NCBI GenBank assembly: GCA_963825315.1
Contig: CAWGST010000001.1
Location: forward strand, 270,556-334,555
From: an uncultured Verrucomicrobiae bacterium
Lineage (GTDB): Bacteria; Verrucomicrobiota; Verrucomicrobiia; Limisphaerales; Palsa-1400
DNA: 64,000 nt
Reading direction: 5' to 3'
How positions within the stretch are numbered: position 1 is the first letter of the stretch; each line of letters opens with the position of its first letter. Position numbers and translations under genes: made by a program. The notes beneath the pieces are model-generated. The model saw nothing but the letters and a program-made list of their open reading frames with translations. It ran no database searches and was not told the origin of the DNA. Positions 12,578 to 37,641 of this stretch are shown here, in pieces.

Positions 12578-15500
12578 ATGAAAAAAAACATACTAATGAT
12601 ACTCGGAATGCTCGGCCTGGGCGTTGCAGCCGCGCACGCGCAAATTATAATTGACTCTTGGGAATCCACAGCCGATATAGCCCAGTGGACGATCCTTGAA
12701 CCGAGCGCCTGGACCAGTTTGGGATTGAGCACCACAGGAGTGACCGCCGGCTCCTACAGTTGGGGATTGAGCGCGTCCGCCGTTGATTACAACCCCGCGT
12801 TGCAAGGACCAGCCAGCACGGCCCTGACCACGGCGATGCTCAATGCCGCTTCCGTCAGTTTGGATTTAGATTTGGCAGGTGACCATTTTAGTTGGGGCAT
12901 CCAGATCGACCTCGAGATCACCCAGCCGGGTGGCGCCAACGGTGGTAATCCGATTGACTTGACCTCTGGCGACTACCTGGGTGATTATAGCGGCCTCGGC
13001 GAAGCCACCATCACATGGCCAGTTCCGCCGTCCACCATAGCCGCATTGAGCGTGCATCCAACTCTGCCCACCTATTTCACTTTTAGGATTGGCGGCGGCG
13101 GTGATGGGATTATGTATATAGACAATCTCCGGGTCACGCCCATAGGGTTGCTTTCCTCTTGGGAAAGCACAGCCGAGATAGCCTCGTGGACGATCCTTGA
13201 ACCAACCGCCTGGACCAGTTTGGGATTGAGCACCAACGGAGTGACCTCCGGCTCCTACAGTTGGGGATTGAGCGCGTCCGCCGTCGATTACAACCCCGCG
13301 TTGCAAGGACCATCCAGCACGGCCCTGACCGCAGCGATAGCCAATTCCTCTGCGGTCAGTTTGGATTTGGATTTGGCAGGTGACCATTTTAGTTGGGGCA
13401 TCCAGATTGACCTCGAGATCACCCAGCCGGGTGGCGCGAACGGTGGTAATCCGATTGACTTTACCTCTGGCGACTACCTGGGTGATTATAGCGGCCTCGG
13501 CGAAGCCACCATCACATGGCCGGTTCCGCAATCCGCCAGGACTGCTTTGGACGCCTATCCATCTCTGCCCTCCTATTTGACTTTTAGGATTGGCGGCGGC
13601 GGTGATGGGATTATGTATATAGACAACCTTCGGGCGACCGTGCTGCCTCCCGCTCCCGCCCAGCTCGCGGTTCGTGAACTATGGGACGACATCGCCGCTG
13701 AACAAAATCCCACCGCGGCGAGCATCACCGATAATACTTCGTCTCTTGGCTTTGTGTCTGCCTCCCCATGGGTTCCCAACCCGGCCGAAAGTGGCCTTAA
13801 CGGAACCGTCAACAACACCGGATTGATGGAGTTTCGCCCAGGTTTTTACTTTGAGGAACTGAGCCTCGACATGGGGTTGCCCGGATCTCTTGACGGGACG
13901 GGTGGATGCATGGTGCAGGAAAATGGCTGGGGCGGCTCCTATTTCCCGGCAACTGGCGGGGGTAGTTTTTGGACCTCCGGGGACTGGATGACAAGACCCC
14001 TTGCTCCCAACAACTACATCAATTTTAAAGCTGTGGGAGAATATTGGTTCTCGATGAGTGTGCAAGAATTTTCGTCGGATTCACAATACGTTATATTCCC
14101 CTCTTCGGGAGGCTGTGGCTTCGGTTTTTCCGACGGCCCCACCACCAACGCCGACTTTGTCGCGGTTGGGCTGACGCCCCTCCATCTTTACCTCGGCCCG
14201 GGTAAGACAAACGCCAGTTCATCCGTTTATGTTTCCACCGGCACCTTGGGCCAGCCCGGCGATCCCTACTCGGTGAGCAACTACAATCCGACCAACGATC
14301 CGGCTTATCTCGGGCTATATACCGGTGGGATATATACGAATGCGCCTTTTTCGGAGACCAACTTCACCGGTGGGCCGTACTACGTCAGCGCTTTCGGCGC
14401 CGCCAGCCAGGGCGACGCCTTTGATGCCACTGATAATGGCATGGTGGTGCTGGGACACCTCAAAACTTGCGCGGACGGCGTGCCCGGCAGCGGCAACGCC
14501 ACCTTGGACGCCAAATTCTATTATTACAACGCTCCAAATGGCTATAACAACGCCATGGACCTTACAACCAATAACATCCAGTGGGACGTAACCGGCTATG
14601 CGTTTAATTTCGGCGGCACCATGACAGAAATGCTGCTGTTTGAGAATGGCCAGTTTTCGACCTATGTTGACGGCTTCCGTGCCGGCACCAGCTTTACCAA
14701 TGTCGTGGGCATTGATGCCGGACGCATTGGGGCTTCGCCATTGGCCAATACTTATGCTGGTTATCCCATCATTCTGACCAACTACACGGTTGAAGCCAAT
14801 CCCAATTCCTTTTACCCGGCGCTGGGAGGAGGTTACGGAACGCTGACCTACCAATGGTACAAAAATGGCACGTCGCCCGCCAATGCGATCTCTGGCGCCC
14901 AATCATCAGTTTACAACGCCATCACCAGCGCCCAGTTGGGCGACGCCGGCACCTATTACTGCATAGCGGGAGATTATTCCGGGCAATGGGGAACAGTCAC
15001 CAACTCCATTGTCATCTCTGTCACAAATCTGGCCCCGCCCACCGTGGCCAGCGTGCAGATGTTCCATGACAGCACCACCTTCCAAGTTACCTTCAGCGAG
15101 CCTAATCTTCTCGGTGTAGGGACGAATACTCATTATGTGTTCAACCACGGAGTCGTCGTCACCAATGTCAACGTCGTTGGAGGCGCCACCTCGACCTTGG
15201 TCCAACTCCAGACCACCACCCTGCCGGTGGGAACCAAGATAACATTGACCATCAGCGACGTAACCAATGCGGTGGGAGGCACCCTGAACGGCGCCGTTGA
15301 TACAACGAATCTAACCTTCTGGACGGATCTCATCCAGACCGGCGTTGCCAACTGGCAAGGCTGGGTGACTGCTACTTCTGAGGGCTGCGGGTACTATTTC
15401 GGCACATGGCTCCCCGCCAACCCTTTGCCCCCCATCCTCCAGACCATCCAAGTCACCAGTTGGAGTGGTGTTAGCAGTGGCGTCACCATCGTGGGCGGCG

Positions 15501-16366
15501 ATGGCAACGCCGGCGAGAATATCGGCGACATCATGACCGGTTGGTTCATTCCGCCAGTCACAGGCGATTATGTGTTCTTCGTCAGTTGCGACGACGGTGG
15601 CCGGCTGTCCCTGAGCACAAACTCGAGCTTCACCAATATGTTTGTCATCGCGGCTGATAACGACTGGAATGGCCTGAACGAATGGACGAATATGTCGGAC
15701 GAGTATCAGACTCAGCCGCATCGTGGAGATGGCACCGCCACCGGCGTTGACAGTGTCGCCAACTACCTCTGGGATAACTCAGTGGCGGAGGGATCGCCCG
15801 CAACTGCCTGCGATCAAAATCGCTCCGATCAGTTTATTGTCGCCTACTTCGACGCCTTAAATGGGGGGCTTGGATTGCCCTATGAGCCGGCAGGCGCGAC
15901 GTTGGCGGAACAAGCTCAATGGGCTTCCACCGGAGATGCCTACCAGGGGGCGCTGACCATGGTCATCACGGCAACCAACTTCTGGCCGAAGACAAATGCC
16001 TGGGGCCAGGCTGAGATCACCCTCACCGCCGGCAATTATTATGCCATGCAGATGGAACACATGAATAATACCTCAGGCTACAACGACAGCGTCACCTATA
16101 AGCTTGCGAGCGATCCGGATCCGCTGTCACCATCAGCGAGCACTCTGACTGGCAGCGTAATTGCGGGCCTGGTGCCGTTCACGCCGACCATATCGATCTC
16201 CGCTGGTCCGCCAGTGGTGATCACTTACACGGGGGTGTTGCTCTCCAGCACGTCCGCGGGGGGGCCATACACGCCCGTGGTGCCGGCACAACAATCGTCA
16301 GGAGGCTCGTCAACGTACACGCCTCCGGCCGCAAGCCCGGCGTTGTTCTATATAACCAGTGAATAG
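12578..16366 (+). CDS. Large secreted multidomain protein: 2 tandem CBM-like jelly-roll modules, an Ig-like domain and a PA14-like domain
   Basis: 1262-aa ORF with signal peptide MKKNILMILGMLGLGVAAAHA. Two ~169-aa near-identical modules end in GIMYIDNLR. There is an Ig-like segment (YQWYKNG...GDAGTYYCIA) and a PA14-like segment (MTGWFIPPVTGDYVFFVSCDDGGRLSLS). Confidence 0.8.
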   Translation: MKKNILMILGMLGLGVAAAHAQIIIDSWESTADIAQWTILEPSAWTSLGLSTTGVTAGSYSWGLSASAVDYNPALQGPASTALTTAMLNAASVSLDLDLAGDHFSWGIQIDLEITQPGGANGGNPIDLTSGDYLGDYSGLGEATITWPVPPSTIAALSVHPTLPTYFTFRIGGGGDGIMYIDNLRVTPIGLLSSWESTAEIASWTILEPTAWTSLGLSTNGVTSGSYSWGLSASAVDYNPALQGPSSTALTAAIANSSAVSLDLDLAGDHFSWGIQIDLEITQPGGANGGNPIDFTSGDYLGDYSGLGEATITWPVPQSARTALDAYPSLPSYLTFRIGGGGDGIMYIDNLRATVLPPAPAQLAVRELWDDIAAEQNPTAASITDNTSSLGFVSASPWVPNPAESGLNGTVNNTGLMEFRPGFYFEELSLDMGLPGSLDGTGGCMVQENGWGGSYFPATGGGSFWTSGDWMTRPLAPNNYINFKAVGEYWFSMSVQEFSSDSQYVIFPSSGGCGFGFSDGPTTNADFVAVGLTPLHLYLGPGKTNASSSVYVSTGTLGQPGDPYSVSNYNPTNDPAYLGLYTGGIYTNAPFSETNFTGGPYYVSAFGAASQGDAFDATDNGMVVLGHLKTCADGVPGSGNATLDAKFYYYNAPNGYNNAMDLTTNNIQWDVTGYAFNFGGTMTEMLLFENGQFSTYVDGFRAGTSFTNVVGIDAGRIGASPLANTYAGYPIILTNYTVEANPNSFYPALGGGYGTLTYQWYKNGTSPANAISGAQSSVYNAITSAQLGDAGTYYCIAGDYSGQWGTVTNSIVISVTNLAPPTVASVQMFHDSTTFQVTFSEPNLLGVGTNTHYVFNHGVVVTNVNVVGGATSTLVQLQTTTLPVGTKITLTISDVTNAVGGTLNGAVDTTNLTFWTDLIQTGVANWQGWVTATSEGCGYYFGTWLPANPLPPILQTIQVTSWSGVSSGVTIVGGDGNAGENIGDIMTGWFIPPVTGDYVFFVSCDDGGRLSLSTNSSFTNMFVIAADNDWNGLNEWTNMSDEYQTQPHRGDGTATGVDSVANYLWDNSVAEGSPATACDQNRSDQFIVAYFDALNGGLGLPYEPAGATLAEQAQWASTGDAYQGALTMVITATNFWPKTNAWGQAEITLTAGNYYAMQMEHMNNTSGYNDSVTYKLASDPDPLSPSASTLTGSVIAGLVPFTPTISISAGPPVVITYTGVLLSSTSAGGPYTPVVPAQQSSGGSSTYTPPAASPALFYITSE
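12653..13666 (+). repeat. Intragenic tandem duplication, 2 x ~507 bp
   Basis: Units at about 12653-13159 and 13160-13666 are near-identical by eye at both the nucleotide and protein level (SWESTA.IA.WTILEP.AWTSLGLST.GVT.GSYSWGLSASAVDYNPALQGP...). Confidence 0.85.
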
Positions 16367-21733: not shown

Positions 21734-21967
21734 ATGACAATGCTGACCTGCAAAATACCGGAGAGGCTCGACGCACGGTTGGAAGAACTGGCGCGGCATA
21801 CAAAAGTGCCGAAAGCGAAGATTGTGCGCAAAGCGTTGGAGCAAGCAGTTCGTAAAACGCCCAGAAATGGCGCGGCCTTTGCCTTGGTCAAAAACTTGTG
21901 TGGCTCTCTCAGCGGGCCATCCGATCTGGCTACGAATCCGAAGCATCTGGAGGGTATGGGTGCCTGA
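21734..21967 (+). CDS. Ribbon-helix-helix (CopG-like) antitoxin, VapB-type
   Basis: LTCKIPERLDARLEELARHTKVPKAKIVRKALEQAV is a typical RHH fold signature. It overlaps the downstream PIN gene by 8 nt. Confidence 0.7.
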   Translation: MTMLTCKIPERLDARLEELARHTKVPKAKIVRKALEQAVRKTPRNGAAFALVKNLCGSLSGPSDLATNPKHLEGMGA

Positions 21968-22376
21968 AACCCATATCATCGTTGACACCGGTCCACTCGT
22001 CGCTTTCCTGATCAAGGAGGAAGCACATCATCGCTGGGTCTCGGACCAATTCCAGCGCCTGCCCGCGCCATTCGTGACTTGCGAACCCGTCCTCACGGAA
22101 ACATTCTTCCTCCTGCGCCGCATCCCTGACGGGCCGGCGAAGTTCTTCGCGCTGCTTGATAGCGGCCTGCTGCAAGTCGATTTCTCCCTGTTGGCCGAAA
22201 AGGATTCCCTGGAAAGGCTCATTCGACGATACGCCAACGTCCCGATGTCACTGGCCGATGCCTGCCTGGTCCGACTCGCGGAATTGAATCCCCGGTCTTA
22301 CGTATTCACTCTGGACGGCGACTTTCACATCTACCGTCAGCACGGACGCCAGGCAATTTCCCTCTTAACTCCGTAA
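21960..22376 (+). CDS. vapC: PIN-domain toxin, VapC-type
   Basis: A GTG at 21960 gives VPETHIIVDTGPLVAF... (first PIN acidic residue in VDTGP). LADACLV and TLDGDF are the later acidic motifs. About 138 aa. Confidence 0.75.
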   Translation: MPETHIIVDTGPLVAFLIKEEAHHRWVSDQFQRLPAPFVTCEPVLTETFFLLRRIPDGPAKFFALLDSGLLQVDFSLLAEKDSLERLIRRYANVPMSLADACLVRLAELNPRSYVFTLDGDFHIYRQHGRQAISLLTP

Positions 22377-22828: not shown

Positions 22829-23200
22829 TTACAACGTCGTCTTCCCTTCTGCCCTCGCCTTGACCCATCTTGCCCTGGCACTGGCGGCCAACTTTGCTCT
22901 TGCCGCAGCACTAAACTTCCTCCGTTTCTTTGCAGGCTTGGATTTCTTTGCCCCTTTGCCTCGATATTTGGCCCATCTCGCCCTGGCCGCAGCAGCAATT
23001 GCAGCCCGACCAGCCCGAGACATGCGCCGTTTCTTCCTTCTGGTGGTGAATGGACTGGACATGCCGCCACCCGCAATTGAATCGATCTTGCCTTGCAGTT
23101 TCTCAACCCTCCTCTCGATGGCAATTTGCAGTTTCTCAATCTTTTTCTTGATGACGATAATGCTTCGGATTTTGTCCGTTGATAAATCTTTGATATTCAT
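22829..23200 (-). CDS. Small basic protein: coiled-coil N-terminus plus two R/K/A-rich ARARWxK repeats
   Basis: The internal ATG at 23200 gives MNIKDLSTDKIRSIIVIKKKIEKLQIAIERRVEKLQ. This is followed by RMSRAGRAAIAAAARARWAKYRGK and KFSAAARAKLAASARARWVKARAE. No family name is assigned. Confidence 0.5.
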   Translation of the reverse strand: MNIKDLSTDKIRSIIVIKKKIEKLQIAIERRVEKLQGKIDSIAGGGMSSPFTTRRKKRRMSRAGRAAIAAAARARWAKYRGKGAKKSKPAKKRRKFSAAARAKLAASARARWVKARAEGKTTL

Positions 23201-23351
23201 GGGGAATTGGTAATCTGGGTGGGGCTTGGGAGTCAATGGCGGAGATTTCGGCTCTTTCCAAAACTGCTGCAAAGAAATCCTGTTGGCAGGCTCCAAAACA
23301 AGCAAAAGTTTGGTTTGACCCCTGCCACGAGGAGATTGCCAAAGGGGACTT

Positions 23352-24725
23352 ACTAGTATTACTCTGTTAAGTTATATTGACACATTTTGAGGGGGTGCTA
23401 CAGTGTTGGTCATGAAGTGGAATTCCGCACACTGGCGGCGCAAGGTTGCCGCGTTTCAAAAATTCATCGAGCCACTGGTGGCCGACATCGGACGGAGCGA
23501 GCGGCGGGAGAGCGCAGCGCTCTACGTGCAGGGCCTTTTAATGCCCGGACAACGCAAATCCATCGAACCCATCGCGCAGCGGCTGCAGGTGGACAGTCAG
23601 AAGCTGCAGCAATTCGTGAGCGACAGTCCCTGGCAGGAGAGCCACGTCTGGCGGGCGATTCGGCGTGAGGTCATTCCGGCGATGGAGCCGTTGCAGGCGT
23701 GGGTCGTGGACGAAACCGGCTGGCTCAAACAAGGCAACCATTCGGTGGGAGTCAGTCACCAATATTGTGGGGCGGTGGGCAAACAGGCGCAGTGCCAAGT
23801 AGCCGTCGAGTTGGTGGTCACGGATGGGGACATTGCGGCCCCGGTGGGAGGAAGGCTCTATCTGCCGGAAATCTGGACCAGGGACCGATCCCGGCGGCGG
23901 GAGGCCGGAGTGCCCGAGCAGGTGAACTTTCAGACCAAGCCCGACATTGCTGGAGACTTGATCGAGGAGGCGCTGGCGGACGGTTTGACGGCGGCCCCGG
24001 TTTTGGGCGATTCCGCTTACGGAAGAACCCCCGAGTGGCGGCGGCGCCTGCGCGGGTTGGGACTGGAATACTTCCTTCACGGCGAAGAACACTGGCTGGC
24101 TTGGGCGCAACGCCCCAAGCTGGCCCACGGCTACAAACTTTGGAGGGTCACCAAGACGGCCCCCAAAGCGCAGTCGTTGCGGCGTTTGGCTGAAGGCTTC
24201 AAAGCCCGGGAATGGCAGGCGGCGACTTGGGAGGCGGCCGACGGCGAAAAGCGCGCGACACGCCTGGCGTGGAGGCAGATTTATCTCAACACCGATTTGG
24301 ACGAGAAGAGCGGAGAGTGGCCATCCTGCTGGCTGGTGGTGGATTGGCCCGAAGGCCAGCCCGATCCGTATCATGTTTATGCTGCCTGGCTCAAGCAACC
24401 GCCGACCAAGGGGCGGAGCCTGCGCTTGAGCCGCGGCCGCTGGCCCATCGAACAGTATTTTCAACGGGGCAAAGACGACTTGGGCTTGGACCACTATGAG
24501 GGACGCAGTTGGCGCGGATTCCACCACCATCTGGTCATGGCCGCCGTCGCCTATTTGTTTGTGGCGATGGATTATCTACGCGCCAAAAAAAACTTCTGGC
24601 CTCACGTGGGAACAGGCGTTGCGGGCGATGCAGCCATTGATCGTGCGCTCGCGCGGCTTGTGTCCCTGCTGCCTGACTGAATTTGAAGATTTTTCGCCTA
24701 TTTCTACTTAACAGAGTAATACTAG
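23352..24725 (+). mobile_element. IS701/IS4-like insertion sequence (~1.37 kb) with 20-bp perfect terminal inverted repeats
   Basis: The left end ctagtattactctgttaagt (23352-23371) is the exact reverse complement of acttaacagagtaatactag (24706-24725). The element encloses a single DDE transposase ORF. Both ends start and finish with CTAG, so the TSD/IR boundary is ambiguous. Confidence 0.8.
23403..24680 (+). CDS. IS701-family DDE transposase (conserved C-terminal tail out of frame after an A8 run at 24585-24592)
   Basis: 425-aa ORF. The N-terminus ...FIEPLVADIGRSERRESAALYVQGLLMPGQRKSIEPIAQRL is the IS701-type signature as I remember it. After the aaaaaaaa run, the +1 frame (ORF 24496..24711) encodes KKTSGLTWEQALRAMQPLIVRSRGLCPCC, which looks like the family's normal C-terminus. 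Confidence 0.75.
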   Translation: MLVMKWNSAHWRRKVAAFQKFIEPLVADIGRSERRESAALYVQGLLMPGQRKSIEPIAQRLQVDSQKLQQFVSDSPWQESHVWRAIRREVIPAMEPLQAWVVDETGWLKQGNHSVGVSHQYCGAVGKQAQCQVAVELVVTDGDIAAPVGGRLYLPEIWTRDRSRRREAGVPEQVNFQTKPDIAGDLIEEALADGLTAAPVLGDSAYGRTPEWRRRLRGLGLEYFLHGEEHWLAWAQRPKLAHGYKLWRVTKTAPKAQSLRRLAEGFKAREWQAATWEAADGEKRATRLAWRQIYLNTDLDEKSGEWPSCWLVVDWPEGQPDPYHVYAAWLKQPPTKGRSLRLSRGRWPIEQYFQRGKDDLGLDHYEGRSWRGFHHHLVMAAVAYLFVAMDYLRAKKNFWPHVGTGVAGDAAIDRALARLVSLLPD

Positions 24726-25900
24726 CGTGCAGCCAGTTCCGTGTCCTCGAAAGCCATGCCGGAGAATTGTTGCACGAACTCGGGCACTGGAATGGTGAAC
24801 AGGCCGTTCTGGGTCGGGTAGCCGTTGGTCAGGCCCGGCGGGCCTTTGGGAATGAACTCGTTGCCGTGCGGGTTCCACAAATCGATGGTGTCATATATCG
24901 GATCATACGCCAGCAGCGCGTAAACGTGACGGGGCGTGAGACCCGGAGTCGTCGGCTTTAGCGTCGAGCAGGTCACCAAACGCTTTTGACCGGTGGCATC
25001 GGCCAGTTTCCTGCGCAACGCGGCCAATCTGGTGTCGCGCAACGCAGCCGGAGCGGCGGGATCCTTGCCGAACTCCAGCGAAAAGCCGCTGACTTTATGG
25101 CCGGTAAGATCGGAAATGACCCTTCCGGCGGAACCGCCACTGGCAATTGCCTCAATGGACGAGTCAGATTGCTGATCCGGCGATTTCAGGCTATTGTGCA
25201 ATTGGCCGATCGCTTCCTCGTAGAGATCCACCCAAAGGCCATCGTGACTGTTGTTCGCCATCCTGCCCATGGCCCGCTCCGCGTCGGTGGGCAACGCCAC
25301 CACAACAGCCTCGGTGCCGATCTTGACGACGCAATGGTACTCACCTGCCATGGAAAACATGGAGGCAACCTCCTGCGGGTCGCGATGAACCATGGCGCCG
25401 ATCGGGGCCAGGCAAAAGCAATCGCCTATGTGCCCTTGGCGGATGGTTTCCAAGCGCGGCAGGCTGGAGGCGAAAAGCTGGCCATTCGTGAAACCGTTGA
25501 TGCGCCGGAGACTATCCAAGTACAGGCGCACCAAATTCGGCTGATGCCTGGCTGGCGGACGGCCGGCAAGCTCGCGGATATTGTTGAAGGTCAACGGAGG
25601 CACGGTGTAATTAGTTGAGAGCGAAGCGCGTTTAAGCGCTGCCAGCGCGGCGGCCGACTGATCGGAATTGGCTGGATCTTTGATGGCAACGTCCAACTCC
25701 TCCATGGACAGGGTTTCATTATGATCCAGATCCCAGGCGTAAAACCTGGCGGCCACCGCTTCGATAAATGGGCCGCCGGTTTTGTCTTGCGCGCGGACGC
25801 TGCATGAAGGCGTGACAGCCAGGAGCAGCAGCAATAGCGCTGGCAAAAAGCCCTGGCGGCGCCCGTATTTGGTTGTAAAGACCAAAGATCTTCCAATCAT
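24722..25900 (-). CDS. Secreted calpain-like cysteine peptidase (peptidase C2-like) with N-terminal EF-hand-like loop
   Basis: Has a signal peptide (LPALLLLLLAVTPSCSVRAQ) and an EF-hand-like loop DLDHNETLSMEEL. The putative catalytic triad contexts are QGHIGDCFCLAP (Cys), RHVYALLAY (His) and LWNPHGNEF (Asn). The stop codon TAG lies inside the CTAG at the IS right end. Confidence 0.7.
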   Translation of the reverse strand: MIGRSLVFTTKYGRRQGFLPALLLLLLAVTPSCSVRAQDKTGGPFIEAVAARFYAWDLDHNETLSMEELDVAIKDPANSDQSAAALAALKRASLSTNYTVPPLTFNNIRELAGRPPARHQPNLVRLYLDSLRRINGFTNGQLFASSLPRLETIRQGHIGDCFCLAPIGAMVHRDPQEVASMFSMAGEYHCVVKIGTEAVVVALPTDAERAMGRMANNSHDGLWVDLYEEAIGQLHNSLKSPDQQSDSSIEAIASGGSAGRVISDLTGHKVSGFSLEFGKDPAAPAALRDTRLAALRRKLADATGQKRLVTCSTLKPTTPGLTPRHVYALLAYDPIYDTIDLWNPHGNEFIPKGPPGLTNGYPTQNGLFTIPVPEFVQQFSGMAFEDTELAAR

Positions 25901-26173
25901 GGGTAAGAGTCAAGCACCTGCCGTGCCACGTAATGCCTTAATTTGAAATTTATATGTCCAAGTGTCACTTTTAAAACTCTCGCCTTATGTGGGTTGCTCC
26001 ATCATTCGAGCATTTCGAGGGTATGTGTTTTGTCAGTGGAGCGGTCCTGAAAAACTCAAGCGGCAATTCTTATCCGGGAAGTGGCAACCTCGAAGGCGAC
26101 CAAGGGCGCACAACTGCCATACAATTACGTCAAGTGTTGAGTGGGGTTTTCCCTTTGAATTTCATCAGGATGG

Positions 26174-28248
26174 TCAGTTTGAGAAGAATTTTTCGTCCTT
26201 GAGCATCGGGAGAACTTTTTGGGCGATCGGATCTGAGGCGAAATGCTTCTGAACACACTGGTCGCCCAGGTAATTCGCGAGCGCGAGAAAGATCATTCCT
26301 TGGTCAAGCACGAGGTATTTATAGGCGACTTCGCCGGAAACGGGGTCGACGGCGTCGTAGAATCCATACTGGCCGTAGATGTCATATTTCTCGATCAAAT
26401 TGCGAAGGTTCGCAATGGCCTCGGCGGGTGTGACATAGAGGGCGAGCGCGGTCACGTGCGGCGTGACGACTCCCGCCTTGTAGCCGCGAACGCCGAGCAC
26501 CTTCACGCCATATTCCGAGTAGCTGTCGGTGGCCGTCATGGAGCAGGGCGACATCCCCCACACGGGATATTTCAACGTTTCAAGGGCATAACGGCGCTGG
26601 ATCACCGCGTGGATCACGTCATTGGTTCCGACGTTTTCCGGTCCGTATTGCTTTTCATCGATGATGACGGTCGGCATCAGCGCCTCGAAAAGACTGCCGC
26701 CCCAGCTTGGAACATATCTGAGACCGTTCCATTCGTACCAGCCGCCGATCGTTTCGTGTCTGCGCACGGTTTTCGCCTTGCGCTCACGTGGCGTGAGCGA
26801 TTGCCAGTCCGCGTTGGACGGGAATGTTCGCAGGAGCCGGAACCAGTGTTCCTCTGGAACATCGCCCTTGCCGATGGCGATCATGCTGCCGGCGCGCGAC
26901 TCCGCGTAGAGCAGGCCATAATTATAGTCTGCGCGACATTTCATGTGGACGTAGAAGCCGTGGTTCATCACCTGATCGACATCATCATAAAAGAATTTGT
27001 AGTTACCGCGATCGATGAGTTTCGTACAGCGCGGGATCAATTCCGGAAAAGCCTGCCGCACTACCATGAGTCCCGACGTCAGCCACGCGCTGTCGGCGAA
27101 CGAAATGAAGTTGCTCGTGCGCTCGTTCGTCGTCGTGTCGTAATAGTTGTAGAGAAACCCTTCGTATGATTCCATTCCCTCGATCGAGTCGAGCGTGTGG
27201 CGCAGGCGTTCGAGAGCTTCGTCGCGCGTGATCAGCTTAAGATCACAGGCGGCCGTGACCGACAGGAGGTAGATGCCGATGTCGGTGACGTTTGAATAAT
27301 CGCCGGCGCGGCTTTCCGCGGGATCGACCGATTTTTTGCCGAAGCGCACCTGGTCGAAAGGCAGCCGATGCTCCCTGTCACAGAGCGAATCGATGCCGGT
27401 CCAGGTGTCGCGCGCGACACGCAGCAGAAATTCTCGATCATCCTTCGGAAACGAGGATTTGTCCGCGAGCAGGGTGGTGGGCCATCCTGCGAGGCGCTGA
27501 CGGATGAACGGCCGGGCCGCGACCTCTCCTCCGTGGGCCTGTTCCCATGCGCGTTTCTTCGGAACGGGCACGGGATCGTGGATGGACGGGCCGGGATCGC
27601 CGGTTTTGACAAAGGCGATGTCGTCGATGAAAACCGCCCCGTGCGTCACCTTTTCGCGGCGCGAATGGAATCCGATGACGAACTGGTCGAGATCCTTCCA
27701 CGTCTCGATGCCGTTCATCATGTTGAGCGGAATGCGGAAGCGCTGCCACTCATCGGTGATGCCCTGGATGACGAAGCTGCCCTTGAGCGTTTCGCCCGGT
27801 GAGTCCGGCTTGGGCTGCTTCACTTCGATTTTGAGCGACTTGGCGAAGCCCTGTTTCGGATCACCCTTTACCCAGAGCTCCAGGTGGTCATAGTCGCGGG
27901 CGTCGAGCCGGTTGAGGCTCATCCAGAATCCGTTCTGGGACGATTTGTTCGGATTGAGCCGGTATGCGAGGTAGAGCGAGTTGCCTTCAGTGCCGCGTTT
28001 GGTCTGCGCATCGAGGATGCACGTGCAATCCGATTTGGAATCAGTCGGATCGAGATTCCACGTTCCAGCATTGCCGCCAAGATTGTTTTGAATGCTCGGA
28101 CGGTCGAAGTCATGCACGACGAGCCGCTTCAGCGTGGCATCGGCAGCGGGTGCGTTCGTGGGAGCGACGGGGTCGGCCCGACATAGGAAAGCGGTTAGAA
28201 CGAGAACACAAACAGTGGAGGGGAACCTGGAGATCGCAAAGATCATAA
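26174..28248 (-). CDS. Secreted DUF3131 / GH144-like glucanase-family protein with N-terminal CBM-like module
   Basis: The internal ATG at 28248 gives a signal peptide (MIFAISRFPSTVCVLVLTAFLC). The N-terminal jelly-roll-like module ends in AVFIDDIAFV. The C-terminal region (YSNVTDIGIYLLSV...FLYNYYDTTT...SAWLTSGL) resembles the glucoamylase-like DUF3131 family. The family call is from memory. Confidence 0.6.
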
Positions 28249-28435
28249 GAAAAGGGCTGCCTGTTTGGCAGCCCTGGCTGGCTGCACCTGCTTGATACTC
28301 CCAGTCAAGCCCTCGTTGCTTTTTGCTATCATCGGTAAAGATCAGTCCCGCATATTGCATTGTTTTCCTTTCTCATTGCAGGCGCAGTGCGTTGGCGGCG
28401 TAACCCGCCGTCCCCATCCGTAAATGGCTTGCTAT

Positions 28436-28960: not shown

Positions 28961-29271
28961 CTCGCGCTGACAAAATCAACGCCTGCAAGACGGCCATTGT
29001 GGAATGGATTGGCCCGTAGCGCCACGCCCAACGACTGCGTTGGACCTTGCGCCAACGTCAAATCATTTTCCGCTTGCTTTTCCAAGACTTTGAACGGACG
29101 ATCGGAACTATGCTGCAGCATGATCACCGACGTCTGGCCACCTTCTGGCGAGTCACCGTCAAAGCTTGGCTCCGACCCCCGGGTCTGATCTGCGTCCGGC
29201 AAAACCAAAAACCAAAAGTGTCAACCGATTATCCGGAAAAGTGGTCTCATAATTAACTTTGCCGCTCAATT

Positions 29272-31362
29272 ATGATAGATCAGGAAATAACTGCGGTTCA
29301 CAAAACAAAACTGGAAGACCGTATTCATTTTTCACAATTAGCTGCCTATGGTGCCGGGGGCATTATTCCCATTGCCCTCTTCAACATTGCCGGCATACTC
29401 GTAGGCTTGATGGGAAATATAAGCCTGGGGCTCAGTGCCTTCTGGCTGGGCGTAATCTTGATCATCCCGCGTTTGTGGGATGCGCTTTCTGATCCCATCA
29501 TCGGTCACCTTTCCGATAATACAAGGACCCGTTGGGGGCGCCGGCGTCCATACCTGCTGATAGGAGGCATACTGGTTGCTGTCTTTTTTGTGGTCATGTG
29601 GTGGATCCCCAAAGGTGATAGGGTGCGGGTCTGGTTCCCGACAGAAACGGGCTTCCAGGCGTTTCAGCTGGTCTATATTCTTTTCTCCCTCCTGTTATTT
29701 TTCACTGCCTGTAATATTTTTGAGATCCCTCATGGTGCCCTGGGCATGGAGATGACCACTGACTACCACGAACGCACTCGCCTTTTCAGTGCCAAGAGTT
29801 TTTCCGGCAATCTTTTTGCCATGAGCACACCCTGGCTTTTTGCCCTCGCCAACATGAAACTTTTCAAAGGCGCAGGAAACGAAGCCGATGGCATGCGTTA
29901 TGTGTCCATCATGATCGCGGCTTTGATCATCCCCCTCTCTTTCTGGTGGTTTTTCAAATTGCGCGAGCCGGGATTTGCAAATGCGGCAAAGCATGAAAGG
30001 ACCCCCTTCTGGAAAGATATCAAACGCACCGCCAGCAACAGGAACTTTCTTATGCTGACCCTGACAATTTTCACCCTGGCCATGGGTTTCAATTTCGTCC
30101 AGCTTCTCGGGTCATACATCCCTATTTTTTATGTTTTCGGGGGTAACAAAGCTGCGGGCGCTTATCTGCTCGGAATCAACGGTACCATCTGGGCCATCAC
30201 CGGACTACTGGCCGTTTTCCTACTGAACTGGATCAGCCCAAAATTGGGCAAACGGAATACCCTTACGATGGCCATCTTACTCATGTGCCTGGCACAACTC
30301 TCTAAGGTTGTCTGCTACAATCCTAGCTTTCCCTACCTGATCATTATACCCACCGTTCTGCTTTCCGCGGCGATGCTGTTCTTCTTCACACTTGGATCTT
30401 CTATGGTAGGCGATATCTGTGATGAAGATGAATTAAAGACGGGTTATCGCGCCGAGGGAAGTTACTACTCTATATTCTGGTGGTTGATTAAAATGGGAAC
30501 GGCATTTGCCAGCTTTGTCGCAGGCGCACTGATAGTATTGACCGCCTTTGACCAAATCCAGGTTACGAAAGTCGATAGCATCTCGGGGATTATCAGGGGA
30601 ATTCGCAGCGAGGTTCAGTCCTGGGGAGGCGATCAGGCTTTCAGCGGCACCAACACGCAGTTGCTGGGGAAAACCAAAACGCAGGTCACTGAGGCACTCG
30701 ATGAGGCAAAAGAATACGTGAGCTACCTGCAGAAGAAATCTGTAAAACAACAAAACAAATCTGAGGAATCTGTTACTAAATACCAAACCGGCCAGCGCGA
30801 CAGGTTGCTGAATGCATTGTTCGCGGTAAAAGCCTCGGCCGCAGGACTGGAAGAGTTGCGATTGCATTTGGAGAACCTTGGGCCCCAGGCCCTGGACTCC
30901 CAGGTCAAAGCCACTGTGGCAGAAGCCATTCGCCTGACACTTCAAACCAAGGTTGAGAAAGCCAGGATGTATTCGTTTGAGCTTATGTCGCATCTGGAAT
31001 CCAAATCAGAGGAGAGTAAAAACAGTGTAGAGCATTATCAGGAGATCATCAGGAACATCACCACATTAGATAACCACCTTGCCAGCCTGAATGCGGCGTC
31101 ATCCCTGCATATTGTGGACAATGAGCTGGCAACAATAGAAAAGGACATTTTACCGCTGACAAAACAAACACCTTATACCCTTCTGATGATGCGGGTGGTC
31201 GAGATCGGGCTGCCCTTGTTATTGAGCATTTTTTCCATCTTTTTTCTCCTCCGTTACTCGTTGACTGAAAATCGGTCGCAGGAGATCAAAAATCTTTTAA
31301 AGCAACGTAATGAGGAACGTTCAAAAGAGGCCATCAAGGCGACGGGATCAGCGACTGTTTAA
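29272..31362 (+). CDS. GPH-family (MelB/YicJ-like) glycoside:cation symporter with a ~208-aa insertion between the last two TM helices
   Basis: Carries the GPH hallmark DALSDPIIGHLSDNTRTRWGRRRPYLL. I count 11 TM segments up to aa ~426. A hydrophilic heptad-rich segment follows (aa ~427-634), and then the canonical last helix plus tail LLMMRVVEIGLPLLLSIFSIFFLLRYSLTENRSQEI. Confidence 0.8.
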   Translation: MIDQEITAVHKTKLEDRIHFSQLAAYGAGGIIPIALFNIAGILVGLMGNISLGLSAFWLGVILIIPRLWDALSDPIIGHLSDNTRTRWGRRRPYLLIGGILVAVFFVVMWWIPKGDRVRVWFPTETGFQAFQLVYILFSLLLFFTACNIFEIPHGALGMEMTTDYHERTRLFSAKSFSGNLFAMSTPWLFALANMKLFKGAGNEADGMRYVSIMIAALIIPLSFWWFFKLREPGFANAAKHERTPFWKDIKRTASNRNFLMLTLTIFTLAMGFNFVQLLGSYIPIFYVFGGNKAAGAYLLGINGTIWAITGLLAVFLLNWISPKLGKRNTLTMAILLMCLAQLSKVVCYNPSFPYLIIIPTVLLSAAMLFFFTLGSSMVGDICDEDELKTGYRAEGSYYSIFWWLIKMGTAFASFVAGALIVLTAFDQIQVTKVDSISGIIRGIRSEVQSWGGDQAFSGTNTQLLGKTKTQVTEALDEAKEYVSYLQKKSVKQQNKSEESVTKYQTGQRDRLLNALFAVKASAAGLEELRLHLENLGPQALDSQVKATVAEAIRLTLQTKVEKARMYSFELMSHLESKSEESKNSVEHYQEIIRNITTLDNHLASLNAASSLHIVDNELATIEKDILPLTKQTPYTLLMMRVVEIGLPLLLSIFSIFFLLRYSLTENRSQEIKNLLKQRNEERSKEAIKATGSATV

Positions 31363-31425
31363 GCTGGGCCACGAGTATGCCCTTCGGACTGTGACGCTTA
31401 GTAATAAAAATATACAATCAAGAGA

Positions 31426-33862
31426 ATGACATTCAATATTAAAGAAAGCAATTTTTATTTAAATAAAAAGAAAGTGTTCGTGAATTCAGGGGAGATCCAT
31501 TATTTCAGGGTCAGACGGGAACTGTGGGACAAGCACCTGGAAGCAGCCAGGGAGGCCAGGCTTAACCGCCGTCAGCACTTACGTCCCTTGGGCATGGCAC
31601 GAATCAGAGGAAGGCGTTTTTGATTTTGACGGCGCCTCATGCCCGGAACGCGACCTCGAAGGCTGGCTGCAGCGATGCCAGGCCAACGGATTGACCTGCA
31701 TCGTCAAACCGGGGCCGTTTATCCTGGCCGAGACCCGTGGAGCGGGGCTACCGGACTGGTTCATGGATGAATACCGGGAAGAAGTCAAGATGCGCAACAG
31801 TAAGGGTGAGACCGTGCCAGGCGACGGAGTCAGTCTGTTCAACCCAAAATTCCTGGAGAAGGTAACGCATTGGTACGACCAGGTCATGCCCTTGATCAGC
31901 AAAGGCGAAATATCGGCCGGCGGTCCGATTATCATGATGCAGATCTGTAATGAGATCGGTGTATTCTCATGGCTGGCGCACCAGGGAGACTATTCTGAAA
32001 ATGTCAGGGCTCGTTTCATTTCATACTTGTCAACCAAATTCAAAAATATTGCGGAAATTAACGGCCGGTGGGGAACGGTTTACCCGGACTTTGCCGACAT
32101 AGAACTTCCCCCTGACGGCAGGCTTTCTTATGCCTCAAAGGTTGACCGAAGCCGTGATTATGAATGGCATTGTTTCTGGAGAACCTATTACGGCGATTAT
32201 TTAAGAATGCTGACCGGCATGGCCAGGGACAGGGGGGTGACGGTTCCGTTTTATCATAATCTTCCGGGCTGGATCTATGGAAGCGGCTATGAATTCCCGG
32301 TCAATATCACCATGTACCAAGATCTCTTCGGGGATAAGAGCGAGATCATGTTCGGCGTCGATCATATCCCGGAATTCCTTTCGCACCGTAACATGCACGA
32401 TGATCGAATCATAAACGACATCACTTTTGCCATGCAGGGGAACAAGCCGTTGTTTGCCGCCGAGCTCCAGTGCGGCTCCCGGGAATACCACGTGGTGACG
32501 AACCCCCGTGAGATGGAACTTTTCTACAAAGCAAGCATCGCCCACGGACTGACCGGCTGGAATTATTACATGTTCTCCCAGGGGCGAAACCCAAGGCACA
32601 GGGGCTATTCCGGGGAAACGTTCTACTGGTTCACCCCGTTGACGCCGGAAGGCGAGCGCACCAGCGCTTTCCCCCTGATTAAACGGATGAGCAAAATCGT
32701 TAAGACTGCCGAAAACCTGATCGTTGAGGCAAAACGTAAGGCAGAGGTCTGCGTCCTTTTCTATCCGCCTTATTATACCACCGAACTCGAGAGACCTGAA
32801 ACAGGAGCAAGCGAGCTTCTATACAACCCTTCAGCCATCCGCAGGCCGGCCTATTTCGACGGCTTGCTGAAAGTGCTCCAGGTGCTCAACATTGATTATG
32901 ACATGCTGGACCTATGCCAGGCTACAACTGAACAATTAGGCAAATACAAGCAGGTCTGGGCGTTCAGCACCGATGAAATGGATGCCGGGGATCAACAGAC
33001 CCTTGTTGATTATACCAAGGCCGGCGGCATGTTAGTTATGTTTCCGTATCTGCCTGAACGCGGGATGTCGCAAAAGCCTTGCACCATCATACGAGATGCC
33101 ATCTTAGTAAAGCCATCCGAGACGGAGATCATCGATTCTCCCCTGATCGATATATATGACTTGAAGGACATCAAGTGTGCCAATCCCCAAATCATTTATG
33201 ATGAGCCATCGCTCGCCGATGCAGAGGTCATCGCAAGGACGATTCGCGGTTCCGCGTGCGGATTCACAAAAGCCCTTGGCGGCGGCGCCATCATACACCT
33301 GGGAACGTGGATCGGATTTGACACTGAAAGGCATAAAGAAGTGTATGAAGCCATCCTCACGAAATCAGGTTCAAAGCTCAGGCAGGCATCAGCATCCAAT
33401 GACAATATAGCAGTCAGGGAGCGCTTTACGCCTGATCATGCCGCAGTTCTTTTCATTGGCAACTATTACAACGACGAACAGGACGGCAAAGTCACCTATA
33501 CGCATCCTGAAAGCGGGGAGGCCATCAATGTACCATACGCGCAGGACGGGATGATATGGCCGCCCCTTTACGGCGTATTGACCCCGGTGTGCATGGATGT
33601 TTCTGATGGCATTAAGATCCTGCATAGCACCTCGGATATTCTCGGTGTTGCAGGGAAAAACGGCCAGATGGAGATCACCATGTACGGAGATCGAGACCTG
33701 GCCGGGGAGATCGTTTTTGAGGGTGCCATGGTTGATAAGATCAAATCTGCGACAATTTGCGGCAACCCTGTAAAAATGGTTCGTGACGACACACGCATCA
33801 CATTCATATACAGTCACAAACATAAACAAGAAATAACCATAAGTATCAAGATAATATCATGA
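31426..33862 (+). pseudogene. GH35-like (clan GH-A) beta-galactosidase-family hydrolase, reading frame broken near 31558
   Basis: ORF 31426..31623 has FVNSGEIHYFRVRRELWDKHLEAAREA and then junk. The +1 frame continues GLTAVSTYVPWAWHESEEGVFDFDG...CIVKPGPFILAETRGAGLPDWF...MMQICNEIG (ORF 31691..33862). An extra nucleotide around gcc-a-ggc explains the split. Confidence 0.7.
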
Positions 33863-33993
33863 AAAGTCACTCTGTGAACCTCCGTATAACAATTATGTAT
33901 AAGTTGCACAGACTTATACAGCGGGATTACAGAATAACACAGAGGACTCATAATACACTCTTATAACCAATCACTTTGAAAGACTAGAAGAAG

Positions 33994-36900
33994 ATGTCCT
34001 TGAACAACAATATGACTCTTAAGAATTCTCTTGGTTTATCTTTTGCATTCCTTAAAAATGGCTCTCTGAAGAGCATGGAAGCTCATCTTATCAGGATAAA
34101 CCTCAAAGCTGCAACTCCTTTTTCAAAACCAGGTGCGAACCTCTACCTGAGGAAAAGAAAACAACCATTTGAATATACCGCTCTTCTAGGCCCGGAAGGT
34201 AACAGCCTTTTTAAAATGGCCGGCGATGCTTTTATTGCCAGGGGAGGCTGGGCCGGTCTTGATTACACCTGCGTGCTGCGACTGTCAAAGAACAGCCTGA
34301 GCTGGCAGTGGAGTGTTGGTATCAAAAATCTGTCTGACAATCCTGTTGAACTGGATCTGATTTACGTCCAGGACGCCGGGCTGAAGCCAGTGAATGCCGG
34401 GTTGATCAACGAATACTATGTGAGCCAGTACCTGGAACGCCGCATCCTCGAAGATAAAATCTTTGGTGCCGTGGCATGCTGCCGTCAGAACATGAAGGAA
34501 TCAACCGGCCATCCCTGGTTTATGATGGCATGCAAAAACACAGCAGTGGCAGGTAGTGTCGACGGCATGCAGTTTTATGGCAAGACATACCGGGAAACAG
34601 GCATCCCGGAAGGGCTGCTTGCAGATAACCCGGGGGGTGATTATGCCGGGGAATCTTCGGTATTTGCCTTGCGGGAAACACCGTTCAGCCTGGACGCCGG
34701 CGGGGTTCATAACAGTGTTTTTGTTGGTACCTATCTGCCGGATCATCCACAGGCCACATCAGAGGATGATCTTAACCGCTTACCCAGCCTAATGCTCGAA
34801 TGCAATGATGAGACCCCGTTTCAGCACGCGAATGACCTGATTTCCCCGGCAAGGAATTTATTCAATACAACTCCTTTCTTACCGGTGGATGATCTGAATG
34901 ATGATGAGCTTAACCGCTTTTTTGATAAGGAAAGGCGCCATCGTGAAGATGAAAATGGCCGGTTGCTGTCATTCTTCAGCCTGCAAAACAACCATGTCGT
35001 GCTGCGGGCTAAAGAGGTAATGGCTGACCGGCCGCATGCGCACATTATGCAAGCCCGGGCCGGGTATGTGCCTGATGAAAGCATTATGTCCACCACCTCC
35101 TTTGCATTTGGGGTTTTCAATTCACATATAACACAGGGCAATACCATTTTCAACGTGCTGCTCTCGGTCTGCACCAGCCAGTTCAATCTCGCCCCGGAAA
35201 CGGGTCAGCGGATCTTTGTGGAGGTGGATGGAAGGCGCTATTTGCTTGGGGTTCCCTCTGCTTTCGAGATGGGCCTGAATCACTGCCGGTGGATTTATAA
35301 ACACGGCAATTACTGCTTCCAGGTCCGTTCCTGGACCTCTAAAGCCGCTCCGCAGGTCAATATGGACTTTAAAGTGATCAGTGGAAATAAAGTGAAGTTG
35401 CTCATTACTCATGATTTTGATGCTCTTGACGGCTGGACCATTTACCCCGGGAGCAAAGCCGGTGAATATATGGCCAAACCAAAGGCAGACAGCATGATCG
35501 CGGGCAAATTTCCGGATGCACGATTCAGCATTTTGATAAACAGCGCCGGTTCTGATTACCGGGCTTGTGGCGACGAAGCGCTATATCCTCACCATAACGG
35601 CCAGGGAGGCTGTTTGTTCGTCCTCGATGTCCGTGAAACCGCAGATTTCTGCATGAGTTTCATCGGTGAAGCGCATTCTGCCGCCGATGCGGTTAAATTT
35701 GAAGATCCTGATCGTCAGTGGCTCTCAGATTGCCAGGATGCACGCTCTTCCTGGAAAGATTTGAGTTTGAACCTTTCCCTGCAAGGAATCCAGGAAGACA
35801 TCGCAGCCATCCAGGAGATCCTGCCCTGGTATGGCATGAACGCCATCACCCATTTTCTGACCCCTTACGGGCTGGAGCAATTCAGCGGCGCCGCCTGGGG
35901 CACGCGCGATGTGTCCCAGGGGCCGCTTGACCTGCTGTTAACCCTTGAAAAGTATGATGAAGCCAGGCAAGTGTTGTGCATCATATTCTCAAACCAGAAC
36001 CCGGATGGCGGATGGCCGCAATGGTGGATGTTCGACAGCTACTCGAATATCCGGGCTGACAGCTCCCACGGCAATATCTTTCACTGGTGCATCATTGCCC
36101 TCAGCAACTATGTCGAAGTTACCGGCAACCTGAAAATTCTGGACGAGGTCCTTCCTTATTATCATGAAAAAGGTCCTGCCCAGGCTGAGCAAACGCCGCT
36201 CAGCGAGCATGTTGACCGGCTTATTAAAATGATCGTTGATTCATTCATTCCGGGCACTGCATTTGCACCCTTTGGCGGCGGTGACTGGAATGATTCCCTG
36301 CAGCCGGTCAGTAAGGAATTAGCACAACGAATGATCTCAAGCTGGACAGTCGAGATGAATTACCAGGCCTTTTCTCAATACCAATTGGTATATGAACAGA
36401 CCGGTAATACAAGAAAAGCCGGAGAACTGAAAGAAATCTGCGAAAAGATCAAAGCTGATTTCAACAAATATCTGGTCAAGGATGGCGTCGTTGCGGGATA
36501 TGGCCTGGTTGAAGACGACCGTAGCATTAGCGTACTGCTACACCCAAGTGATACCAAAACCGGGATCCGGTACAGTATCTTGCCAATGAACCGTGGCATC
36601 ATCAGCGAGATATTCACTAGCGAACAGGCGCAGCATCACCAGGATCTCATTGAACTGCATCTGAAAGGCCCTGACGGCGCCCGCCTTTTGGACCGTCCGC
36701 TAAGGTACAAAGGGGGTATCCAAACCATTTTCCAGAGGGCGGAAAGCAGCACCTTCTTTGGCCGCGAGATTGGCCTGATGTACGTGCATGAGCATATCCG
36801 TTATGCAGAAGCACAGGCCCGTACAGGCAGGGCGGATGCCTTCATGAAAGCGCTCCGCCAAGCCATCCCGGTGGGGTACAGGGATGTTGTCCCATGCGGG

Positions 36901-37356: not shown

Positions 37357-37362
37357 AGATTC

Positions 37363-37560
37363 TTATTCCTTATGTTCGTCTTCAATTGTCAGTTGGGCGT
37401 AGTAGCGGCCGTTGCGCACCCACAAACCGCGAATCGGGTGCTTGCGCTCGTCGAACACCTTGAGGTAGGGTAACGCCTGATGATGAACTTCAGCCACAAC
37501 GTGTGCGGCGGCGGCCGGAATTGCCTGGCTGCCATTGCTTGGGCTGGTATTGCCTTTCAT
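37363..37560 (-). pseudogene. N-terminal stub (~65 aa) of a tyrosine-integrase-like gene
   Basis: ORF 37363..37578. LPYLKVFDERKHPIRGLWVRNGRYYAQLTIEDE resembles integrase N-terminal arm-binding regions. The frame terminates (HKE*) exactly where G+C drops and the GH94-like gene ends (37356). Confidence 0.4.
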
Positions 37561-37641
37561 GGGGCAACACCAGCACAATCACCAGCACAACGTCAAATGA
37601 GAAGAAGCGTAAAAGTTGTAAGGTGTTCATAATCAATATGT

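Follow-up and report, generated by a model that had tools for sequence, protein, structure and literature searches.

A probable exported calpain-type (C2) cysteine peptidase with an N-terminal EF-hand-type loop in an uncultured Verrucomicrobiae bacterium

Does a bacterium that exports a calpain-type protease also equip it with a calcium site of its own? In the textbook view calpains are calcium-activated proteases of eukaryotes, and the main survey of their bacterial homologues described them as free of EF-hands and mostly calcium-independent (PMC4631099). The question is raised by a minus-strand gene at positions 24722 to 25900 of a 64,000-nucleotide stretch of DNA, referred to here as the window, from an uncultured Verrucomicrobiae bacterium (contig CAWGST010000001.1). 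A first-pass annotation made from the letters alone had described its product as a secreted, calpain-like cysteine protease carrying an EF-hand-like calcium loop. We found that observation to be real, and its interpretation is supported with qualifications: the best explanation, to which we give a rough probability of 0.72, is an exported C2 protease with an N-terminal EF-hand-type module and a role for calcium after export. The features on which this reading depends are as follows.

24722..25900, minus strand: EF-hand-bearing calpain-type (C2) cysteine peptidase precursor (predicted); complete open reading frame (ORF), 392 aa, ATG start
25790..25900, minus strand: predicted Sec signal peptide MIGRSLVFTTKYGRRQGFLPALLLLLLAVTPSCSVRA, residues 1–37; from hydropathy and the N-termini of 35 homologues
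25496..25771, minus strand: N-terminal helical module, residues 44–135; from AlphaFold2 models
25697..25732, minus strand: EF-hand-type 12-residue loop DLDHNETLSMEE, residues 57–68; from alignment, hidden Markov model (HMM), profile and hhalign
25586..25621, minus strand: second loop of the module, LSTNYTVPPLTF, residues 94–105; from alignment and AlphaFold2
24731..25483, minus strand: calpain-like protease core (CysPc), residues ~140–390; from Pfam PF00648 and Foldseek
25436..25438, minus strand: Gln155, putative oxyanion-hole Gln, invariant; from the alignment and the QG.LGDCW motif of calpain-3, -5 and -9
25418..25420, minus strand: Cys161, putative catalytic nucleophile, invariant; from the alignment, including the calpain motif
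24926..24928, minus strand: His325, putative catalytic base, invariant; from the alignment, inside the Pfam match
24872..24874, minus strand: Asn343, putative third triad residue, kept in at least 90%; from the alignment

All four motifs quoted by the first-pass annotation were located in this frame and their codons checked: QGHIGDCFCLAP at residues 155 to 166, RHVYALLAY at 324 to 332, LWNPHG at 341 to 346, and the EF-type loop at the residues listed above. Removal of the presumed signal would leave a predicted mature protein of 355 aa, with a mass of ~38.5 kDa and a pI of 5.7.

The calpain-type assignment was evaluated by profile search and by alignment of 35 homologous sequences, from which all conservation figures below are taken. 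The Pfam model Peptidase_C2 (PF00648) matched residues 150 to 347 with 33.3 bits (E 3.5e-8), above its gathering score of 23.8, and the match spans Gln155, Cys161, His325, and Asn343 in catalytic order. The same model matched 35/35 homologues scanned, with a best E of 1.2e-13, which upholds the claim of a calpain-type protease for the family as well as for the window protein. Gln155, Cys161, and His325 are invariant, as is Trp342, while Asn343 is replaced by Asp in two homologues (P0078 and P0120). An alignment with HMMER placed the family motif QG.LGDCF on QGELGDCW in calpain-3 and calpain-9 and on QGQVGNCW in calpain-5.

An AlphaFold2 model built from the 35-sequence alignment had a mean predicted local distance difference test (pLDDT) score of 87.4 and a predicted TM-score (pTM) of 0.80. 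When this model was compared with the PDB by Foldseek, the best 40 matches were all calpain cores (calpain-1, -2, -3, -5, -8, and -9), with a probability of 1.00, E values from 2.9e-11 to 4.8e-6, ~295 aligned columns, and 16–21% identity; the TM-score on the target (TMt) was 0.5–0.58 for isolated calpain cores. The next fold was phytochelatin synthase at E ~1e-3, with other folds of clan CA at E values of at least 1e-3, so that the predicted structure resembles calpain protease cores and no other fold with comparable significance. Calcium-bound, assembled cores and calcium-bound full-length m-calpain (3bow, 3df0) gave TM-scores on the query (TMq) of 0.45–0.47, whereas calcium-free m-calpain (1kfu, 1df0, 1u5i) superimposed more poorly on the model, with a TMq of 0.37–0.40.

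Sequence searches of the PDB behaved differently from the fold comparison. With the single protein as query, phmmer returned no calpain from the PDB sequences and one marginal WD40 match. With the profile split into halves, PC1 matched calpains only marginally (E 0.03–0.28) and PC2 matched none. The catalytic-domain profile was topped by designed WD40 proteins, with E values down to 7e-17, and WD40 homology was rejected as a repeat artefact: each stretch scored 3–6 bits against one G..L..LTGH....F..D motif, and these small scores add up across as many as 12 identical repeats. The segment G..(I/L)..LTGH....F.L.F..D at residues ~258–295 (window ~25016–25129), which collects such additive weak matches, could mislead automated annotation.

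We consider it very probable that the gene product is a C2 cysteine endopeptidase exported by Sec, with a triad of Cys161, His325, and Asn343 and with Gln155 in the oxyanion hole. In such an enzyme, Cys161 would attack the peptide bond with His325 as the base, Asn343 would orient His325, and Gln155 would form the oxyanion hole. The mature enzyme would then consist of the N-terminal EF-hand-type module followed by a two-lobed calpain-like core. The protease call is itself not new, given that some homologues already carry the NCBI names "C2 family cysteine protease" or "peptidase C2".

To what extent does the N-terminal module resemble an EF-hand? Both AlphaFold2 models show helix-loop-helix twice, with beta-bridge residues at 64 and 103, plus one further helix, and the single beta-bridge residues resemble the arrangement of an EF-hand pair. 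Helix 44–56 and helix 66–73 flank the EF-type loop, whose putative calcium ligands are D57, D59, N61, the T63 carbonyl, S65, and E68, with the hydrophobic L64 at position 8. These positions are well kept across the 35 sequences. Position 1 is Asp and position 12 is Glu in 35/35; position 3 is Asp (24) or Asn (11), position 5 is Asp (21), Asn (11), or Ser (3), position 8 is Leu (34) or Ile (1), and position 9 is Ser (27) or Thr (5), together 32/35. Position 6 is more variable: Gly in 23, Gln in 9, and Asn, Arg, and Glu in one each, the Glu being Glu62 of the window protein.

We scored the loop against the EF-hand pattern PROSITE PS00018 in a form that allows D, N, Q, G, H, R, or K at position 6; the strict-pattern counts given here use this form. 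The strict pattern was matched by 32/35 members, and the window protein departs from it at position 6 alone. The first-pass description of the loop as canonical-looking is thus close to accurate but not fully so, given the disallowed Glu at position 6. With position 6 left free, the pattern arose in 52 of 20,000 shuffles of the peptidase (0.26%) and once in 51,148 residues of the six-frame ORFs of the window.

Profile comparisons pointed in the same direction. Among the 35 members, EF-hand_6 matched 22, EF-hand_1 matched 14, and EF-hand_5 matched 11 at E ≤ 1. When the full-length family profile was searched against PDB sequences, the best matches were EF-hand proteins (calbindin, calmodulin, calerythrin) at E 2e-4 to 1e-3, and these matches fall on the loop region. 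An hhalign comparison aligned residues 46–77 with residues 10–41 of calmodulin, its EF-hand 1, at a probability of 74% and E 2.9e-5. A Foldseek search with the isolated N-domain returned EF-hand proteins as all of its top 50 matches, yet with E values of at least 0.077 and a TMq of 0.32–0.42. Judged by its sequence, the EF-hand-like loop is no chance occurrence. Acidic ligands are lacking in the second loop, which presumably does not bind calcium; in our reading, drawn from alignment and model, the module comprises one EF-hand-type site and a degenerate partner.

The calcium sites intrinsic to the calpain core were also considered. In rat calpain-2 these are I89, G91, D96, and E175 for the first site and E292, D299, Q319, and E323 for the second (PMC4631099). 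The Asp of calpain site 1, at −9 relative to the catalytic Cys and −3 relative to the oxyanion Gln, aligns with Thr152 in HMMER alignments with calpain-3, -5, and -9. Both sites appear to be missing from the protein described here, an outcome that agrees with the bacterial homologues of Rawlings (PMC4631099). Neither a Calpain_III domain nor a C-terminal EF-hand was found in the HMM scans, and the protein ends at residue 392, just past the core. Since the core sites are apparently missing, the EF-hand would be the sole recognizable calcium site.

Several results weigh against this reading and should be set beside it. By sequence alone, the core resembles solved calpains only marginally (E ~0.03), and NCBIfam has no model for the peptidase; for these reasons the C2 assignment is based on the Pfam HMM and the fold. 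The absence of site 2 was read from the positions Asn+6 and Asn+13, which correspond to Phe349 and Gly356 by residue counting from the published numbering and not by alignment. The EF-hand profile search proposed in the first-pass annotation returned no Pfam EF-hand match to the window protein at E ≤ 1. The matches in its relatives all lie below the gathering scores (12–19 bits against 25–30; best 19.3 against 25), which is why the EF-hand domain is missing from annotations. In the Foldseek search with the isolated N-domain, no match reached E ≤ 0.001, the best being 0.077. By sequence, one EF-hand alone is recognizable, hhalign aligning the first only, and in the window copy Glu takes the place of the usual Gly at position 6 of the loop.

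The last of these points bears most directly on the window copy. A relative at 83% identity (L011), whose gene is free of the insertion sequence (IS) described below, likewise has Glu at this position, so that Glu62 is no one-off lesion. Calcium binding is plausible for the family and, because of Glu62, less certain for the window copy, for which we consider the chances to be about even.

How could such a site act? According to the proposed mechanism, the EF-hand would bind Ca2+ once the protein leaves the low-calcium cytoplasm, and the enzyme would become stable or active through this binding once exported and not before, as reported for the calcium-dependent autoprocessing of Tpr from Porphyromonas gingivalis. 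A broader proposal, which we advance tentatively and at less than even odds, is that Verrucomicrobiota, Planctomycetota, and Armatimonadota independently fused an N-terminal EF-hand Ca2+ sensor to an exported calpain core, with the loop serving as an export-gated switch; the protease would be inactive at sub-micromolar cytoplasmic Ca2+ and stable or active at the higher Ca2+ outside. That calcium acts as a real switch seems to us somewhat doubtful. What the data show directly is the ORF, membership in C2 by HMM and by fold, the conservation of the triad and of the EF-loop ligands, and the joint inheritance of the two modules; signal cleavage, calcium binding, calcium dependence, and substrates are all points that we infer, the substrates probably being envelope or environmental proteins or peptides.

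The alternative that survives best also takes the protein to be a genuine exported C2 protease, and regards the EF-like loop as a relic: the enzyme would be calcium-independent, the N-terminal module would act as a scaffold or pro-domain, and Glu or Gln at position 6 would stop the loop from closing around Ca2+. Glu62 in the window copy and the Gln that replaces Gly in its nearest clade (9/35) are what such a history could leave behind, and both the window protein and a close relative (P0009) lack any EF-hand HMM match. On the other hand, the PROSITE pattern permits Gln at position 6, and the Gln-bearing relatives of this clade pass the strict form, while the presence of Glu in L011 shows that the residue also occurs where no IS has inserted. 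The side-chain ligand positions (1, 3, 5, 9, and 12) are kept in the window copy and in its relatives, position 9 with the exceptions already given, a retention that speaks for ongoing selection on metal binding. In keeping with a relic, Rawlings predicted calcium independence for most bacterial calpains (PMC4631099). On balance we regard a relic loop as unlikely.

The export of the enzyme was assessed from its N-terminus. The n-region is basic (K11, R14, R15), and the h-region reaches a mean Kyte–Doolittle value of 2.98 in an 11-residue window from residue 19. A VRA|QD junction follows the h-region and is the likely cleavage point by prediction. Signal-like N-termini are present in 35/35 homologues, with sequences that are otherwise unrelated, and the Ala-Gln junction recurs among them (AAQT, NAQT, FAQT, VRAQ), so that cleavage by signal peptidase I fits. 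The signal peptide is therefore probably removed after Ala37, and the signal peptide claimed in the first-pass annotation gains support from this family-wide pattern, as a prediction. Export by Tat was rejected, as relatives have HR, FR, or PI in place of the RR pair, and so was a lipoprotein, as TPSC is a poor lipobox and Cys33 is not conserved. The site of action of a Sec-exported enzyme would be the periplasm, the cell surface, or the extracellular space.

The same N-terminal segment could instead be an uncleaved signal anchor, tethering the enzyme to the cytoplasmic membrane on its periplasmic face. The h-region FLPALLLLLLAV is long and very hydrophobic, as the hydropathy value above illustrates, and membrane-associated bacterial calpains are known from Rawlings (PMC4631099). 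Against a tether stands the small-residue −3/−1 motif (VRA|Q) directly after the h-region, with an Ala-Gln that recurs across many homologues. Moreover, in the AlphaFold2 model residues 1–5, 9–14, and 30–40 have pLDDT values below 50 and make no structured contact. We consider a signal anchor improbable and retain the exported, cleaved form as the preferred reading.

Relatives of the peptidase were sought in protein and genome collections. In the protein collection, 130 matches at E ≤ 0.001 were found among 8,000 word-sharing candidates scored, most of them 360–400 aa long and some of ~600 aa with TPR repeats. An exhaustive profile search returned 594 representatives of 50%-identity clusters at E ≤ 1e-30 and 2378 at E ≤ 1e-10, and in one-genome-per-species data covering 185,579 species a relative is encoded at 105 loci. 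The best matches come from metagenome-assembled genomes of Limisphaerales and Verrucomicrobiota (83% and 78%), from which the host of the window is probably a Limisphaerales-like verrucomicrobium. The family extends over Verrucomicrobiota, Planctomycetota (Gemmata, Zavarzinella formosa, Limnoglobus roseus, Tundrisphaera, Phycisphaerae), and Armatimonadota. In 80 genomes, the majority of tblastn matches start at or before residue ~45 and end at ~385, which indicates joint inheritance of the EF module and the core. Longer members of ~560–650 aa also occur (P0057–P0059, P0073, P0074, P0081, P0084, P0086, P0088, P0108), as do P0121 (826 aa) and P0212 (1067 aa); in some of these longer proteins, TPR repeats (PF07719, PF00515) lie C-terminal to the unit of EF-hand-type module and C2 core (EF-C2).

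Genomic context was compared over 80 genome loci. Clustering of flanking ORFs disclosed no family-wide neighbor, only clade-restricted synteny. One such block, in Verrucomicrobiaceae (nine loci, including Brevifollis and Prosthecobacter), begins with a BPL_N/class-I GATase-like gene, followed by a gene for a secreted NlpC/P60 protein that ends 0–12 nt before the C2 start, then by the EF-C2 gene itself and by a giant PATR-repeat (autotransporter-repeat) gene. The loci noted are L041:5129–5989, L058:823–2490, L048:7275–9044, L042, L050, L052, L053, L056, and L068, with L054 and L065 showing it in part. This NlpC/P60–C2–PATR arrangement is a hint that the peptidase of that clade acts at the envelope or surface.

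It also invites the suggestion that the calpain fold here serves a non-proteolytic or cell-wall reaction, such as hydrolysis of peptidoglycan stem peptides or transpeptidation. The fold of clan CA supports amidases and transglutaminases as well as proteases, and in the nine loci the gene is placed between the secreted NlpC/P60 gene upstream and the PATR-repeat surface protein gene downstream. However, the synteny is limited to one clade at 34–42% identity and is absent from the window, the full Gln/Cys/His/Asn peptidase set is conserved, and the only characterized bacterial calpain, Tpr, is a protease. A cell-wall reaction therefore seems to us quite improbable, and proteolysis remains the preferred activity.

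Does the peptidase have a partner in the window itself? Its upstream neighbor, separated by a 273-nt gap, is a context feature only.

26174..28360, minus strand: Glycoamylase (PF10091)/DUF3131 protein, upstream neighbor of the peptidase; Pfam 80 bits

This match confirms that the neighboring protein is glycan-active, as the first-pass annotation had it. Beyond it lie genes for an MFS_2 transporter, a GH35/42-like enzyme, and an SOGP/GH94 phosphorylase. The tie between protease and glycan enzyme that the first-pass annotation implied does not extend to relatives. The adjacency is confined to four near-identical contigs, including the strain variant L002, and is already lost at 75% identity (P0014), where the neighbors are a GH39 protein and an ABC transporter ATPase. 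At 64% identity (P0019) they are an amidohydrolase and an M50 peptidase, and in the more distant P0040 and P0091 a CAP-domain protein or SBP_bac_10 proteins. A promoter and terminator scan of positions 24500–26400 gave nothing above shuffle expectation. A functional link to the glycan genes was rejected because the adjacency varies beyond near-identical contigs and no family-wide partner exists. That the peptidase acts in concert with the secreted glucanase next to it and with the beta-1,2-glucan utilization genes, for instance as a processing or activating enzyme for their products, is very improbable: the pair shares a strand and persists in the four contigs, even in L002 with its differing flank further upstream, but it is absent from all four of the more divergent relatives just named, and the promoter and terminator scan gives no evidence either way.

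The glycan genes form a feature of their own. A low-GC island at ~29000–38000 (GC content 0.49–0.50 against 0.57–0.61 elsewhere in the window) holds ORFs at 29272–31362, 31691–33862, and 33994–37356 for an MFS_2 sugar transporter, a GH35/42-like protein with GLMA_2nd, and an SOGP/GH94-type 1,2-beta-oligoglucan phosphorylase, respectively. Together with the PF10091 glucoamylase, the island looks like a cluster for beta-1,2-glucan utilization. At the island position L002 carries different genes, which suggests that the island was recently acquired or is variable. Elsewhere in the window, the plus strand encodes a GH15 glucodextranase at 4456–6837 (Glucodextran_N, 319 bits), a Reg_prop/Y_Y_Y beta-propeller sensor-like protein at 8236–10875, and a 1262-aa protein with weak PA14 and Ig matches at 12578–16366.

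On its other side, the peptidase gene abuts a mobile element, which is again a context feature.

23353..24725, plus strand: IS701-family insertion sequence, 1373 bp

The element has perfect 20-nt terminal inverted repeats (23353–23372 and 24706–24725) and a transposase ORF at 23403–24680, which scored 339.6 bits with the NCBIfam model transpos_IS701 and 210 bits with Pfam DDE_5. CTAG is found at both ends, and the terminal copy holds the TAG stop codon of the peptidase. The IS-free relative L011 ends identically (...GCA CGC TAG, ELAAR*), which indicates that CTAG is the native target site, duplicated on insertion, and that the peptidase ORF is intact. Truncation of the peptidase by the insertion was thereby ruled out, L011 having the same ...ELAAR-TAG end. 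What the insertion did displace is the native 3′ flank of the gene. The element is present as one copy only in the window, and 4/4 near-identical contigs carry it at this site or end in it. Beyond it, a PIN-domain protein (PF01850) is encoded on the plus strand at 21822–22376 with an adjacent small ORF; on contig L001 the PIN gene is paired with an RHH_3 antitoxin-like gene, likely a toxin–antitoxin pair beside the IS. Between the PIN gene and the element lies a 158-aa ORF (22829–23305, minus strand), the C-terminal half of which is rich in lysine, arginine, and alanine, with repeated AAARA(R/K)W.K motifs.

If the broader proposal of an independent fusion and an export-gated switch is true, it would amount to convergent evolution of calcium-regulated calpains, and the published view that EF-hand domains are absent from bacterial calpains would no longer stand. 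The literature searched yielded no exported protein that combines an N-terminal EF-hand with CysPc. The family offers a simple single-chain system of ~38 kDa in which a calpain core is paired with an EF-hand loop, and it includes the cultured strains Zavarzinella formosa, Limnoglobus roseus, Gemmata algarum, Brevifollis gellanilyticus, and Tundrisphaera sp. TA3. It could serve to test whether enzymes of the calpain fold came under calcium control more than once, and how an EF-hand at the opposite end of the protein signals to the active site. The practical value is modest, possibly a calcium-switchable secreted cysteine protease, and no new category of biology is involved.

Comparison with the classical calpains of eukaryotes (calpain-1, -2, -3, and -9; MEROPS C2) discloses the same core fold (Foldseek E ~3e-11, TMt 0.54–0.58, ~295 aligned columns), the same Gln/Cys/His/Asn set, and the QG.LGDC motif, and in both groups an EF-hand-type calcium module is fused to the core. 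The identity, in contrast, is only 16–21%. Classical calpains are cytosolic, whereas this protein is exported by way of a predicted signal peptide. They have a C-terminal penta-EF-hand where it has, in our reading, a single N-terminal EF-hand and a degenerate partner, and it lacks the calpain-III/C2L domain and the small subunit. The core site-1 Asp of classical calpains is Thr152 here, site 2 is apparently absent, and the motif at the catalytic Asn is W-N-P-H-G instead of N-P-W-G. In the tree of Rawlings, the eukaryotic C-terminal EF-hand domain was acquired late, at "node I" (PMC4631099). As that domain is both C-terminal and late, a bacterial fusion would be independent.

Bacterial calpains are already known (PMC4631099; PMC9380684). 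A 2022 paper on a cyanobacterial calpain makes no mention of EF-hands, Planctomycetes, or signal peptides. Rawlings described bacterial C2 peptidases in 2015 as rare and patchy, some with signal peptides and most without the core calcium sites, and counted 67 bacterial homologues, one from Planctomycetes and none listed from Verrucomicrobia, with no bacterial calpain bearing an EF-hand domain (PMC4631099). The present family shares the bacterial origin, the signal peptide found in some of that set, and the lack of core sites common to most of it; unlike that set, its 594 cluster representatives (see above) define a family with a conserved N-terminal EF loop. Schaffer et al. (2020) described proteins from Verrucomicrobia and other phyla in which EF-hand modules are joined to enzymatic domains (PMC7016017). 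These calmodulin-like fusions likewise join an EF-hand to an enzyme, and the text searched names no peptidase or calpain fusion (PMC7016017).

Tpr, from the Bacteroidota member P. gingivalis, is the only biochemically characterized bacterial calpain (PMC4631099). It differs from the protein described here in its phylum of origin and, as Rawlings attributes no EF-hand domain to bacterial calpains, in that respect as well. The two are alike, compared by description, in being bacterial C2 peptidases outside the cytoplasm. In an account that cites Staniec et al. (2015), Tpr is reported to autoprocess into active forms at high Ca2+ in vitro (PMC7912814). Tpr is thus the closest functional precedent for calcium-gated activation after export.

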